Below are positions 27,355 to 46,800 of a stretch of DNA of 64,000 bases, piece by piece. Source of the DNA: Octopus sinensis (taxonomy: Eukaryota); NCBI RefSeq assembly GCF_006345805.1, contig NC_043013.1, positions 21,886,001 to 21,950,000 of the forward strand. The letters are read 5' to 3'. The notes under the pieces are model-generated. The model did no database searches. It was not told the origin of the DNA and was given only the letters and a program-made list of their open reading frames with translations. The first letter of the stretch is position 1; each line of letters opens with the position of its first letter. Position numbers and translations under genes: made by a program.

Positions 27355-30300
27355 TTCTCTTCTACATCTCACTGACATTTGGAAATGGACGTAAGTAAAT
27401 TTATATCAATATATAGACATATATCTATGAAAATTATGGAAATAACTTCTCAAAACGAATTCAATTCTTAACATAATTTCCATTGGTGATGATTCCGTTT
27501 TCCGTCAGTTTGTAAGCATTTTGTTAAATAAAACAAAGGGCTGGTATTAGGGGACATTCTTTACAACAGACAACCGTTAAACATTACAGTATATTATATT
27601 TGAATCATTTAAATAATAGAATTAATTAAACAACATTTAAGACTCATTCGCAGTCATTTTCATTAAACAGATTATATATCCCAAGATCTTTGTACCTACA
27701 CTATGGTAGTAACAACTCTATCACTTCTTCCTGGTAAAAATATCAATGCTGATCCTCAAACATTTAATATTCTCTATCTTTATTATTATCTATTTTCACA
27801 ATGTTTTATTTTCGTCTTCGTATTTTGGTTGTTTAATTTGCCTGGCTTTGTTACAGTTGGATATCTGAAGTATTTTATGAAAGTACCAGACGCCGGTCTG
27901 AAAGATGCCAAAACATTGATGACACTTGACGTGGATGCCTTCAACTGTTCGAAGAGTTGTTTTGAAACTTCTGCATGTAAATCCTTCGTGAGCAGAACGA
28001 TAAGTCCAAGCTGTGTTTTATACGAAGAAGACTCAACAGAGATGATGCTAATAAGTGAATATAATACCCATTTTTATCAGTTGAGAAGATCTGTGCCGAC
28101 CAAGAATGGAGACGGTAAACAAATTTGAATCTTTTTGTGTTTATTTCATTCCTTGACTTGTATTCTATGTTTTAGTCCAAAGAGTGACAATACTGTCGGC
28201 ATTTGAAAATTGTCTGCGATTTATCTGGTCGATGTAGATTAGCGTGTGTTGGAAAATAATTTCTTGTAGAGTTTTCATTCCGGAGAGTTAAAGTTCTAAT
28301 AAAGTTTTTAGTGATGTGTTTAGCAGAAAATTTAGAAACGGATTGAGACACAAGATTACCGAGGAGGGAAGAGAAAATGTAAAGTTTTATAAGACCGTTT
28401 TGTCATGTGACTAACAGAGAAGATTCTCAATATATTTGATGATGAAAATAATGCATGTCTGGTGTGTAATATTTGTGTATGGATGACATCAGTTTGTGAG
28501 GGAGAAGAAAAGGGATCTTATAATAAAACAGAATATGATAAGAGTTTTTAAAATTACGCACAATAATTACACAAGATGCTTAACTGAATGTGTAAAACAT
28601 ATTTTATTTTTTAAATATAAATCAAAGAAAATGGGGAAAAAGTAGGGTAACTTACTCACAAATGAATGAAAACCCTCAAACTGGATCAAATCATAATCGC
28701 CCACAATCCTGATTAACTCTCTCTCTCTCATTTTCTATATATCTTCTCTTTCTCTCTCTCTCTCTCTTTCTTTCTCTTTCTCTCTCCCTCATTCATTCTC
28801 TCTCCCCTCCCCCTCTCGCTCTTCTCTTTCTTTTCTATATCTGTCATTCATGTCCAGAGTGCCCCAGAAAGATTTACCCGTGTGTAAAACTCTTCCTAAA
28901 GAATATCGGTTCAGGTAATATCTACATTTAACGTAAAGATTTGCTTATGTCTTTTGTTCATGTTTCTATTGTTTCGTTCGTCTAAAACTGGTTTGCAAAC
29001 AAACATGGCGTTGAAAGCAAAAAATGACCAGATTGTCGCTTTGAGAGCAGTTGAATGTGTGTCGTAAAACAGTGTTCAATACCTGGAAACAATATATGGA
29101 GTCCGCTACAAGCTCTAGCAAGCCAATTCCTTGTAGGAAGCGAACAATTGAAATGTTGACGGTATGAAGAAACGAATGAACGGAAATCCCCGCAGGATGC
29201 AAGAAAAGCTGCAACAGTTCTTGATATTTCGAAATCGTCAATGAACAGGATTTTTAAAGGGGATTTAAAACTTGCTGCAAAAAAGAAACAATCCAATCGG
29301 TCAATTTCAGCAATTACCAAGAAAAAACGGCTCGGCAGGGGTAAAACTATGTTAGCTGAGATGAAGCGTGCTACTAATAAAGTGTTGATATGATCCGATG
29401 GGAAACTATTCACCGCGGAGGCAGTTTCCAATAGAATGACGGGCTTATGCACATAATGCAGGGGACTTGCCCGACGGTAACAGGATTCATAAAGTCAGAG
29501 ACTTTCCTCTTTGGTCAAGCCCTCACCAACTTCATCAAGTTTCATTTGAAAGGGATTTGGGGGGTGGAGAGGGAAGTGTTGCCTTGTAGTAATTGTAAAT
29601 GTCCAGTGCAAAATGACCAATTCTGAGCGCGCACCTATAAACAATAAAAGGGAATTAAAGAAGGGCTCTTGCCCTGTAGATCAGGCACCCGTGGCTTTTG
29701 TGGGGTTTTCCATGAGGACCTTAAAGCGCCTCCCCTATTGGGAGTTTTTTTTATTTGTTTGATTTACTTGTTATTTATTGTTTACACGCCGTAAAACCCA
29801 TTGTATCGTCCCGTTTTTGTCTGTTATGTTGTTGCATGTCATTCAATGTTATTTTATGTGAGCGATCATGGCTAACAAAATAATTTATTATAATTATTAT
29901 TATCGTTATTAATATTATTATTATTATTATTATTATTATTATTATTATTATTATTATTATTATTATTATTATTATTATCTCTTTTATCATCACAATATTA
30001 TCACAATATTGATATCTATTAAAGAGTAGAAAATATATCTATTAATTATTTCTCATTATTCAAAAATAATAACACTATACAACGTGAAATAATCCCACCA
30101 CCATTACGAAAAACTATAAAAGACAACTTTGATTCATCTATTTTCTTCTTACAGGAAGATGTCCTTTTGAATTTATTGACCAAGCTGGTCTGTATTTAAA
30201 CAATGATTTGGGTACCTTTTCTAACTTCAATTACACGCAATGTCTGCTTCATTGCGAAGCAAAACCAAATTGCCAATCGTTTGACTATAACTATAATTAC

Positions 30301-43834: not shown

Positions 43835-46800
43835 CTGCAGAAAAAAATAGCAAGAGGAAACACAATAAATATAAGAGCATAAATTAAATTATTGCTCTAG
43901 TCTGACAAAGTACAAGTGAAACGAATAGAAGTGGCCTATTGATTCGATAGATCGATTTTATTCATGTTCTGTTTGGACATCTTTAGGGTAGTGTGAGTAG
44001 GGAGTGAGTTCCAGAGTCTTGTATAATCTAGAAAGGAAGGACTGGGGATAATAATTGATGTGGGATCTGGCTGGTGAAATAGCATGTATGACGGGAGAAT
44101 GAGAAGGGGTATGTAGATGGGTATCTCGGAGGGAGAGTGATTCTCGTATTACCGGCGAGATGTATTGAGGTATTTCTTTGCAGATTAGTAAGGAAGCGTG
44201 TTGAGAATTTTAATGACAACGGAGATTAATATTAATTCATCTACCAGATTTTAAATGTATTTGTGGGATGTTTTACAACATCCTTTTGAATGAATATTAA
44301 TCATTAATTTACTGTTAATATATTTAATTAAGAATTAAGTTTCTAAGTAGAAATACTCATGTGATGTAGAAGAAAGAGATATTTATTTATTTTTTAATTT
44401 TTTGTGGCAAGAACTAGAGATCAATGAATTAAAGATGAGAAACCAGAAACAGAAACGAAAAACACAAAAAATAAACGAAAAGAGGGTCTTACTGTCAACG
44501 AAATAATAAGAGTCGAAAAGTCTTATACCACATCCCACAGAGTTAATCTTGTCCAGTGTATTTGACTGTTTGAAATCGTTCCAAAGTTCTGAAATGGAAT
44601 AAAAATAGTTTCTTATTCTTCTGATGATCTTAATATCTTCCGTGATTTCTTTACTATTAATCAAGAAATCCTAATCTCTTTAATACAATCGACTTCCCTA
44701 TTTATATATAAGACGATTTTATATAAGAAATCATTACCTCTTTAACATATGTGTTTTATTTACTGTCAGTTATGGAGAGAGAGAGAGAGAGAGAGAGAGA
44801 GAGAGAGAGAGAGAGAGAGACAGAGAGAGAGAGAGAGAGAGAGAGACAGAGAGAGAGAGAGACAGAGAGAGAGACAGAGAAGATTAAAATATAGAGAATC
44901 CTAATTTACTCTATCAAATACGTAGGAATCGGAAGAAGTTTAGAGAAAAATAGAGGCGTGGGACGCAAATGTCATGCTAGAGACGACATGCTAGAGGCGA
45001 CAGGTAAAGGACAGAATTTCTGGGAAAAATTCATATTCAGTTTTTACCGAAGATCAGGTTTTCAGTATAATTTCATCACAAACACAAATTACAGAATAGT
45101 AAAAGAACCTTTTACGTGGAGTTCAGCTGTAATTTTGGGCGTGCACACAGTGAGAAATAACATGATTCGTACAGAAGTTTTACCGTGTGTGTGTGTGTTG
45201 TCATGTATGTATTATTTTGCCTGTCTGTCTAAGTAACTCACTCTCTCACACACACACATATACATTGTCTTTCATATACACGTACATAAATACATTTGAA
45301 TACATTCTTTTTAGTGTGTATGAGTGCGTGTGCATGAGAGAGAGAGAGAGAGAGAGAGAGAGAGAGGGAGAGAGAAAGGGAGGGTGAGTGACTGTATTTC
45401 CTCTTGACATATAGAAATATGTTTGTCTTTTAATGAAATATTTTTGGTTGTAGCTTATTTTAGTACGATATTTATGTGTACATTTTCGAAAATATGGAAA
45501 TAAAAATATAGTTTATTTGGTAGCCGAAAGATTAATGAATCTTATGATACCCCACACGTCAAAATCGGCAACACAGCTTTCGAATACATAAGGAACATAC
45601 ACGCACGCACACACACACACACATACACACATACACGCACACACACACACACACACACATACACACATACACACACAAACTCTCTTTTACATATATAGAT
45701 AATATAATATATTTTACTGTTCAATTTATAACCCTCAATTCGACCAACCGTTAACGAATACAATACTGTTTATAATTTGAATATAAGTTACCCAACCAAA
45801 TTCCAATGCTTATGCCTTAAATTGCATTACATCAAATTATATATTACATGTACCATCACAATTTTATTCCATTCTTGATCACAAATGTTAGACGACGGAA
45901 ACGTGAAACGGTAACAGTTTTTTGTGATGTTTTTGCAGCTTGAATAAAAAGAGAGCATAATACCCTACCTTCGGTACTTGAGTCCTACTTCTTTCCACCT
46001 TGTTTTGCATTTATGTGCTTAATCGTGTGTGTGTGTGTGTGTGTGTGTGTGTGTGTGTGTGTGTGTGTGTGTGTGTGTGTGTCTAATAGGAGTGATCAAT
46101 AGTTTGGTCTTTAATTAGTCCCTCAATTTACATACCTTAAGGACAAGCTGGACTCAACCATTTGATAAAGAGTAAAATGAACTACTAGGGTGACATAACA
46201 AGCTAAAGCTTTTGAAGGTGGTACCTCAGTATTGTCTAAATAAAAAATAAAAGAGATTTGCACTTACCTCTGTTTATGTCAGTGTAGATGAAACCCTTGT
46301 GCACATGAAACGGTGTATAAGTATAGTTATAATTTGACATTGTGCATTTTTCATAAAGAAAGACGTAGTGAAACGATTGACAATTTGGTTCCGCTTCACA
46401 ACGATTGAAACACTGCGCATAATTGACACCAGACACCGATTTCAAAAGTGTAGGAATAGGAGCGTGAGCATTGTAAATGAGATTCACAGGACATCTTCCT
46501 GAGAGAATAAAATAGATAAATGCTTTGTTTTGGTTTGGTTCTCGTAATGGTTGACGGGATTATTTTCAGGTGAATAGTTTTACTATTTTACATTAATGAG
46601 AAATTATAAATTGATAAAAAATTTGAATATAATGACGGACGAAATACATCTAAGCATTTTGTCCGGCGTGCTAAAGATTTTTCTACCTCACCGCTTTAAT
46701 AATAATAATAATAATAATAATAATAATAATAATAATAATAATAATAATAATAATGATAATAATAATACTGATAATAATAATAATAATAATAATAATAATA

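Follow-up and report, generated by a model that had tools for sequence, protein, structure and literature searches.

Diversified recognition families, among them the FREPs and VIgLs of Biomphalaria, sea-urchin SpTransformer, Hydractinia Alr and oyster bindin, are tandem and mosaic, and combine a more uniform scaffold with a binding domain under positive selection. To our knowledge, no family of the FREP or SpTransformer kind has been defined in cephalopods, and we know of no PAN domain that serves as a hypervariable recognition scaffold in animals. Here, we analyze a family of octopus genes encoding three PAN (apple) domains, PAN1 to PAN3, starting from a window of 64,000 nucleotides (nt) of Octopus sinensis DNA (RefSeq assembly GCF_006345805.1, contig NC_043013.1, positions 21,886,001 to 21,950,000, forward strand). 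The window is AT-rich animal DNA with three copies of one gene: A (minus strand, 5' half only), B (plus) and C (minus), of which B and C are oriented tail to tail. The layout comprises six exons: an ATG exon, a 36-nt exon, a 258-nt PAN1 exon, a 231-nt PAN2 exon, a 96-nt linker exon and a terminal PAN3 exon. Sequence comparisons give good support to an evolutionary mechanism in which mosaic exons surround a positively selected middle domain, PAN2.

The closest described systems each resemble this family in part. Among proteins of solved structure, Toxoplasma MIC4 and Sarcocystis SML-2 match it best in sequence (4a5v, E 2.2e-5; 2yil, E 0.0023). They are secreted, as the octopus proteins likely are, and they too consist of tandem PAN domains only, which in these proteins bind galactose (PMC10034466). 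They differ in being parasite adhesins of fixed specificity, as opposed to about twenty germline variants in an animal host, and in a lysine, MIC4 K469, whose equivalent is missing from octopus PAN2. The top fold matches are the apple discs of prekallikrein and factor XI and the N domains of HGF and plasminogen (Foldseek E 2.7e-8; VIA Z 12.2 for HGF N), but the octopus genes encode no protease or kringle: their open reading frames (ORFs) end after PAN3, at 280–282 residues, and their relatives are PAN-only. We know of no diversification of one apple domain in kallikrein, factor XI, HGF or plasminogen proteins.

The likeness to FREP-like families lies in sequence evolution. The scaffold here is PAN rather than Ig, fibrinogen or F-lectin; the domain exons and full-length relatives list PAN families only, with no Ig plus fibrinogen or lectin combination. 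A further parallel is exon 5 of the red/green opsins, where divergence is confined to one exon and the flanks are homogenized by gene conversion, as PMC3924837 describes. Octopus PAN2 is also one divergent exon between apparently homogenized flanks, but it exists in about twenty copies and several old lineages, and the excess among copies of one lineage (G-type, to which B belongs) is non-synonymous only. Overall, the family works like known diversified recognition families and, by the features tested, is not a FREP, a MIC4-type lectin or a kallikrein/HGF member.

PAN2 variability across the family

A first-pass annotation of the window had described a divergent middle domain between two similar ones in B and C, and its counts were reproduced. 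Compared on whole codons, the two proteins are identical at 70 of 85 residues in PAN1 (15 differences), 31 of 76 in PAN2 (32 of 77 with the split Gly codon, which adds one position) and 53 of 63 in PAN3 (10 differences); nucleotide identity is 0.91, 0.60 and 0.93, respectively. Both PAN2 exons are 231 nt long, in phase 1 and bounded by AG/GT, and they share five cysteines, with a sixth in B (codon 30361) that is Phe in C, as first described. The adjoining introns are indeed more diverged: the p-distance is 0.27 upstream and 0.49 downstream of PAN2, and only 107 and 165 bases of the long introns on either side can be aligned. Silent differences number 8/31 in PAN2 versus 4/67, 0/28 and 3/50 in the other exons, and the Nei–Gojobori (NG) dN/dS of the pair is 0.69. 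The linker exon between PAN2 and PAN3 (Table 1) was missing from the earlier account.

Searches of the same genome returned 49 matches among 129 candidates for PAN2, 43 of 91 for PAN1 and 53 of 79 for PAN3, many of them identical copies on unplaced contigs. A 390-kb cluster around the window contains 12 genes and one orphan broken PAN2. In ten of the 12, none of the four domain exons is broken. The other two are G11, whose PAN3 is frameshifted, and G2, in which exon 2 and PAN1 are missing and PAN3 is interrupted by a stop. Other copies lie 7.5–9 Mb away on the same contig, on contig C29 and on unplaced contigs. The family comprises about twenty genes in this genome, with B and C as two intact members. 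We analyzed 22 PAN1, 23 PAN2, 22 linker and 21 PAN3 sequences. This set excludes unplaced duplicates that are identical or nearly so, the extra PAN3 exon that G4 and G10 each have, an orphan pair of linker and PAN3, four frameshifted PAN2 and two broken PAN3.

Mean amino acid identity within the cluster is 0.87 for PAN1 (55 pairs), 0.55 for PAN2 (66), 0.90 for the linker (66) and 0.86 for PAN3 (45), and across all copies 0.76, 0.49, 0.78 and 0.81. Divergence is thus not uniform across exons once more copies are included, and the excess variability of PAN2 is neither chance nor an effect of a single pair. Five Cys, Pro and Tyr columns of PAN2 are invariant, and the 23 divergent exons retain frame and splice sites.

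Several observations on individual copies stand apart. G2 and a related degenerate copy, G4x (C17:21710790-21701460 and 21797003-21788785), run from a second type of leader exon straight to PAN2; exon 2 and PAN1 are absent from G4x as well, which has a deletion in PAN2 where G2 has its PAN3 stop. G4 and G10 each possess two intact tandem terminal PAN3 exons about 760 bp apart (C17:21755365/21754604 and 21952225/21951459), possibly alternative 3' ends. Unplaced contigs C9083, C9732, C8475, C9506, C9695 and others duplicate cluster segments, often identically, and the single-base frameshifts of some copies (L009, L156, C8486) do not occur in the twin copies and may have arisen in assembly. The idea that a single gene holds mutually exclusive PAN2 cassettes was rejected: each cluster PAN2 follows its own leader exon.

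Signature of positive selection on PAN2

Codon models were fitted with custom code that matched IQ-TREE M0 likelihoods; branch lengths could vary only by a common scale factor, and posteriors are naive empirical Bayes (NEB). For the 23 PAN2 sequences, the likelihood-ratio test (LRT) statistic of M2a against M1a is 96.2, with an omega of 3.47 at 24% of codons, and that of M8 against M8a is 89.9, with the same 12 sites. The signal is present in both subsets of the alignment (LRT 56 for 12 G-type sequences, 43 for the 11 other copies), and the site classes with omega above 1 range from 3.5 to 5.5 across tests. No recombination within the PAN2 exon was detected by the pairwise homoplasy index (PHI; p=0.70). 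In the codon models, the signal is weak for PAN3 (LRT 8.0) and absent for the linker.

The introns provide a second comparison, which needs no tree. Among nine collinear G-type genes, pN in PAN2 is 0.207 versus 0.069 in about 1.9 kb of adjoining intron, and it exceeds both flanking introns in 32 of 36 pairs. Silent third positions of conserved codons differ at 0.066 in PAN2, close to the 0.077 of PAN3, and the PAN2 excess among G-type copies is non-synonymous only. An elevated silent rate in G-type PAN2 (NG pS 0.159) was considered and rejected as a multi-hit artefact, given the 0.066 at conserved codons. Codon models and intron-normalized pN both indicate that PAN2 is under positive selection, one of two causes that the first-pass annotation had offered for its divergence.

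Old PAN2 lineages within probably homogenized flanks

The other cause, old variable cassettes with homogenized flanks, draws its support from discordant exon trees, PAN2 silent divergence and the introns. The PAN2 tree places C and cluster gene G12 with copies that lie outside the cluster, but by PAN1 and PAN3 both genes belong with the cluster. Approximately unbiased (AU) tests were run on 19 genes with single-clade constraints; whole-topology AU tests were not retained, being unfair to trees with poor resolution. Cluster monophyly is the maximum-likelihood tree for PAN1 and for linker plus PAN3 and is rejected for PAN2 (p-AU 0.0013), and the PAN2 split is rejected on PAN1 (p 0.02). At silent third positions of conserved codons, C differs from the G-type genes by 0.057 in PAN1, 0.287 in PAN2 and 0.065 in PAN3. 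Its likeness to those genes is lost about 120 bases past PAN1 and returns about 180 bases ahead of the linker. C can be read as an old PAN2 lineage mounted inside cluster-type flanks.

Exchange between copies is also visible within PAN1, for which PHI indicates intra-exon recombination (p=0.002). An unplaced copy of G10 differs from G10 in this exon solely by a patch of six changes at nt 31-40 that matches G12 and looks like a short conversion tract. Two O. bimaculoides proteins extend the pattern beyond the species: their PAN1 domains are 88% identical to each other and at most 82% identical to copies in this genome, but each PAN2 domain has its nearest counterpart in a different lineage of this genome, one in U1 (76%, support 100/95) and the other in K1 (76%). 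From the discordant trees, the silent divergence of C and the O. bimaculoides pattern, we infer that the flanking exons were likely homogenized by recombination between copies around long-lived PAN2 lineages. Both proposed causes appear to operate, at different scales.

A sequence of steps would account for these features. Tandem duplication would yield whole-gene copies, and exchange between them would be concentrated where homology survives, around exon 2/PAN1 and linker/PAN3, producing mosaics such as C, with cluster-type ends around an old PAN2 that keeps its own introns. Selection would then fix different residues on the PAN2 sheet strands and adjoining loops and retain old PAN2 lineages, so that each gene likely encodes a distinct specificity.

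Predicted fold, selected sites and cysteines

An AlphaFold2 model was obtained for the G-type relative P0001 from 58 aligned rows (predicted local distance difference test, pLDDT, 88; predicted template modelling score, pTM, 0.81); an alignment of eight rows gave a pLDDT of 49 and was unusable. Domains 1 and 2 of the model match structures of the PAN fold, a helix on a five-stranded sheet. The HGF N domain aligns over 79 residues with a root-mean-square deviation (rmsd) of 2.1, followed by the kallikrein apple (Z 9.1, rmsd 2.2, 81 aligned), MIC4-A5 (Z 8.4, rmsd 2.1, 70 aligned) and the leech salivary PAN proteins LAPP (Z 8.0, rmsd 3.0, 78 aligned) and saratin (Z 6.4, rmsd 3.3, 86 aligned). The arrangement of the three domains had no counterpart among solved proteins (TM about 0.25, rmsd 16-18). 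PAN3 sequence ends just after the fourth Cys, and the model places a strand of the linker exon at residues 212-221. This strand may complete PAN3, and the third domain is possibly circularly permuted; a profile permutation test of PAN3 gave no score gain.

The positively selected sites fall at model positions 123, 129, 131, 154, 157, 159, 161, 170, 171, 173, 175 and 178. They alternate along predicted strands (129/131, 154, 159/161, 173/175), and the 12 sites are expected to lie on one exposed face. Two of them align with an Asn and a Tyr of MIC4 apple 5 that we take to be galactose-pocket residues. The PAN2 site may sit where that of MIC4 does, without the same chemistry.

The sixth Cys of B had been suggested to complete an apple-type outer disulfide, and this suggestion was not supported. 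Its column is hypervariable: the 23 copies show nine different residues there, B alone has Cys, and the selection posterior is 0.99. When factor XI apple residues 92-177 are aligned structurally on model residues 111-190, the extra Cys lies at 178; the canonical closing Cys of the factor XI apple, presumably at about 175, would fall near model residue 188 instead. The PAN2 N-terminal Cys and the linker Cys are the only conserved cysteines left after the PAN core pairs, and all relatives whose sequences span these positions have both, even distant paralogues and Argonauta. These conserved leftover residues, together with the hypervariable B column, suggest that the outer disulfide likely pairs the PAN2 N-terminal Cys with the invariant linker Cys. 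The extra Cys of B is also the middle residue of an N-x-T glycosylation sequon (window 30358-30366).

Gene structure, transcription and leader exons

All exon joins are in phase 1 with AG/GT ends, as verified throughout, and the ORFs of 282 residues (B) and 280 residues (C) have no internal stops (Table 1). The PAN_1 profile (PF00024) recognizes all six large exons of B and C, at 23.7–36.9 bits, above the Pfam gathering cut-off of 21.4. The N-terminus resembles a signal peptide, with a basic start and a hydrophobic core as judged by eye. Together with the absence of a membrane anchor, this makes secretion of the product likely. The candidate ATG exon of B would encode the N-terminal half of this peptide; its join to exon 2 is predicted from sequence. 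The linker donor at 35075 is conserved across copies, and annotated relatives contain the exon; an early donor at 35039 in B was rejected in its favor. PAN2, linker and PAN3 of gene A lie left of the window (G000:C17:21879399, 21868071 and 21867302).

Table 1. Exons of genes A, B and C, in window positions.
Feature	Position	Strand	Evidence
Gene B candidate ATG exon, second leader type, 37 nt, phase 1	21710..21746	+	ATG and GTAAG donor, in frame with next exon
Gene B exon 2, end of likely signal peptide	27355..27390	+	AG/GT; identical to C copy; matches annotated relatives
Gene B PAN1 exon, 258 nt, 4 Cys	27857..28114	+	PAN_1 26 bits; 3' end joined to PAN2 in contig X1
Gene B PAN2 exon, hypervariable, G-type lineage, 231 nt	30155..30385	+	PAN_1 36.9 bits; spliced contig, 0 differences; selection tests
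Gene B linker exon, 96 nt, invariant Cys codon 35036	34980..35075	+	Start follows PAN2 in contig X1
Gene B PAN3 exon with stop	35575..35765	+	PAN_1 24.9 bits, profile positions 15-53 of 76 only
Gene C ATG exon, common leader type, 31 nt	59903..59933	-	N-terminus same as annotated relatives
Gene C exon 2, end of likely signal peptide	56360..56395	-	AG/GT, phase 1
Gene C PAN1 exon, cluster-type	55528..55785	-	PAN_1 25.7 bits; nests in cluster clade
Gene C PAN2 exon, 231 nt, probable old divergent lineage shared with cluster gene G12	46268..46498	-	PAN_1 27.6 bits
Gene C linker exon, 96 nt	44493..44588	-	AG/GT, phase 1
Gene C PAN3 exon with stop	43644..43834	-	PAN_1 23.7 bits
Gene A 5' half: ATG exon 10935-10905, exon 2 7627-7592, PAN1 7065-6808	6808..10935	-	

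At least one sample contains a spliced transcript of gene B. One 796-nt contig from run X1, guessed to be RNA, covers its PAN2 exactly, and the loose ends of the contig are the end of B PAN1 and the start of B linker. An untranscribed, decaying exon 5, raised at first pass as a possible source of the divergence, is not what was found for B. Such a contig was present in one of three RNA-type runs, whose labels are coded and give no tissue; X2 holds an unspliced exon-intron piece only and X3 no contig on B PAN2, and neither is informative on expression.

B, G10, H1 and the two broken copies are headed by the second leader type, which is unrelated to the common one and may carry a different promoter. 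Besides B, its loci are G000:C17:21982794, 21797003, 21710790, 12859223, 13703593 and 22245294, and weaker copies (77–79%) stand upstream of a distant three-PAN-like paralogue near C17:22.25 Mb. A search with the B leader exon gave 13 matches, all on C17 or on unplaced contigs that bear the family, and six of six fetched copies were intact; on this distribution of matches, an origin as a transposon piece or dispersed repeat was rejected.

Repeats also occur in the window. A mariner-like transposase remnant is common to the PAN1-PAN2 introns of A and B (window 6096-5000 and 28900-29440), an intron that measures 2.0 kb in B versus 9–15 kb in other copies. Two non-LTR (long terminal repeat) retrotransposon-like copies, about 96% identical, in opposite orientation and with broken frames, lie at 808-3979 (plus) and 53503-51431 (minus), and a 778-bp segment downstream of B (36859-37636) recurs inverted, at 96% identity, upstream of C (63998-63222).

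Relatives and range

Relatives are labelled as uncharacterized proteins of O. sinensis, O. vulgaris and O. bimaculoides. A hidden Markov model (HMM) search of 1.84 billion representatives gave 257 matches at E <= 0.001 and eight at E <= 1e-30. The ten looked up are all octopod: a close Argonauta relative and, for the rest, older paralogues from Octopus, several of which share the three-PAN layout and both outer cysteines. The family is likely restricted to octopods, though this is not proven. Members or relatives appear in databases as uncharacterized 'Apple domain-containing' records (LOC118761179, LOC118766702-713, LOC106868906; Argonauta Ahia01_000849900); unlike the genes described here, these are automatic annotations only, often truncated or chimeric. 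Other octopus PAN-pair proteins, P0021 and P0022 (C9 near 20.6-20.7 Mb) and P0093 (C13 near 18.9-19.2 Mb), comprise long PAN-PAN proteins with sushi-like repeats and PAN-PAN-mucin-WSC proteins, related only distantly to PAN1-PAN2.

No description of the family was found in literature on octopus and cephalopod PAN/apple proteins, LOC identifiers, accessions, proteomes and selection, a coverage that leaves out most subscription papers. Family peptide motifs were unmatched in the searched parts of the supplements on O. vulgaris skin mucus (PMC10138644), ink (PMC10142993) and posterior salivary gland (PMC7693380), which is not evidence of absence. The skin-mucus paper lists three unnamed 'Apple-like' proteins (PMC10138644).

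Function and alternative explanations

The features of a diversified immune-recognition class were found here: a multigene family, a positively selected domain with a putative binding role, and mosaic exons. On balance, we favor a secreted three-PAN family in which PAN2 would present a variable surface that binds non-self ligands, between homogenized outer exons. From the sequences, we infer a function as 'recognition protein'. The soluble products would likely bind microbial or parasite surfaces, with a germline repertoire of about twenty specificities. A more specific proposal, that this is an undescribed, octopus-specific germline recognition repertoire on a PAN/apple scaffold, with old trans-species PAN2 specificities that selection would retain and exon-scale recombination would re-mount on shared flanks and two leaders, we put forward tentatively.

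Several findings weigh against this view or complicate it. The PAN2 split is not formally rejected on linker plus PAN3 (p 0.052), and the two O. bimaculoides copies are not recovered as a sister pair when PAN1 proteins are placed in a tree. The codon tests depend on custom code, fixed branch lengths and NEB, and two fits (PAN1 M8, PAN3 M7) were numerically unusable. PAN1 also gives a selection signal (M0 omega 1.35, LRT 55, possibly inflated by recombination), so that the constant-variable-constant layout proposed at first pass is an oversimplification: the variable middle stands, but the flanks are not constant, and the similarity of PAN1 appears to reflect homogenization more than constraint. 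O. vulgaris records are 99–100% identical to the orthologous copies here, and the X1 contig is identical to B, which shows that PAN2 variants are stable rather than fast-turning. The position equivalent to MIC4 K469, on the residue numbering that we assume for the 2ll3 chain, is Ser in 21 and Leu in two of the 23 PAN2 copies; with this Lys missing, the sugar chemistry of MIC4 is not kept. The K469M substitution abolishes galactose binding in MIC4 (PMC6608980).

The least probable alternative is a neutral escape from homogenization under relaxed constraint, in which PAN2 drifts between two long transposon-filled introns. It would by itself explain the contrast between B and C in silent differences and dN/dS, and the broken copies G2, G4x and G11 agree with it, but it cannot generate site classes with omega of 3.5–5.5, or a pN three times that of the adjoining intron among collinear G-type genes, and the invariant Cys, Pro and Tyr columns and the frame and splice sites kept in 23 divergent exons also speak against it. 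Nearly as improbable is a component of extracellular matrix, mucus or sucker surface whose diversification tunes adhesion rather than non-self recognition: PAN domains are known in apical matrix and biomineral proteins (PMC13425148), yet the three-PAN architecture has no ZP or chitin-binding domain and no membrane anchor, and selection focused on one domain would be unusual for a structural matrix.

Salivary or venom-gland products, whose PAN2 variants would bind different prey or host targets, could arise by the same evolutionary mechanism. Venom components are usually secreted, multicopy and positively selected, the identified relatives are all from octopods, and leech salivary LAPP and saratin are among the fold matches; but the leech matches are no better than those of other PAN domains and hence reflect the fold only, and no positive evidence places the family in a gland. 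We regard this role as unlikely, and equally so a reproductive or social-signalling one, in which PAN2 would confer specificity in gamete, spermatophore or egg-coat recognition or in secreted chemical cues. Tandem arrangement, secretion and positive selection are common among families of reproductive and pheromone proteins, and the two leader-exon types could allow tissue-specific expression, but the near-identity of orthologous PAN2 between two Octopus species and the persistence of its lineages to O. bimaculoides are not the species-specific divergence expected of gamete-recognition proteins. Non-self recognition therefore ranks ahead of both.

If non-self recognition is the correct reading, the family would represent diversified soluble immune recognition in a cephalopod, analogous to snail FREPs but on a different fold. 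It also offers a clear case of one exon that appears to retain old lineages while its neighbors are homogenized. The 23 PAN2 variants and 12 selected sites form a finite, testable panel, and the 80-residue domain is likely easy to express. Whatever the ligand, be it microbe, parasite, prey or mate, the pattern points to ongoing molecular conflict in the octopus.

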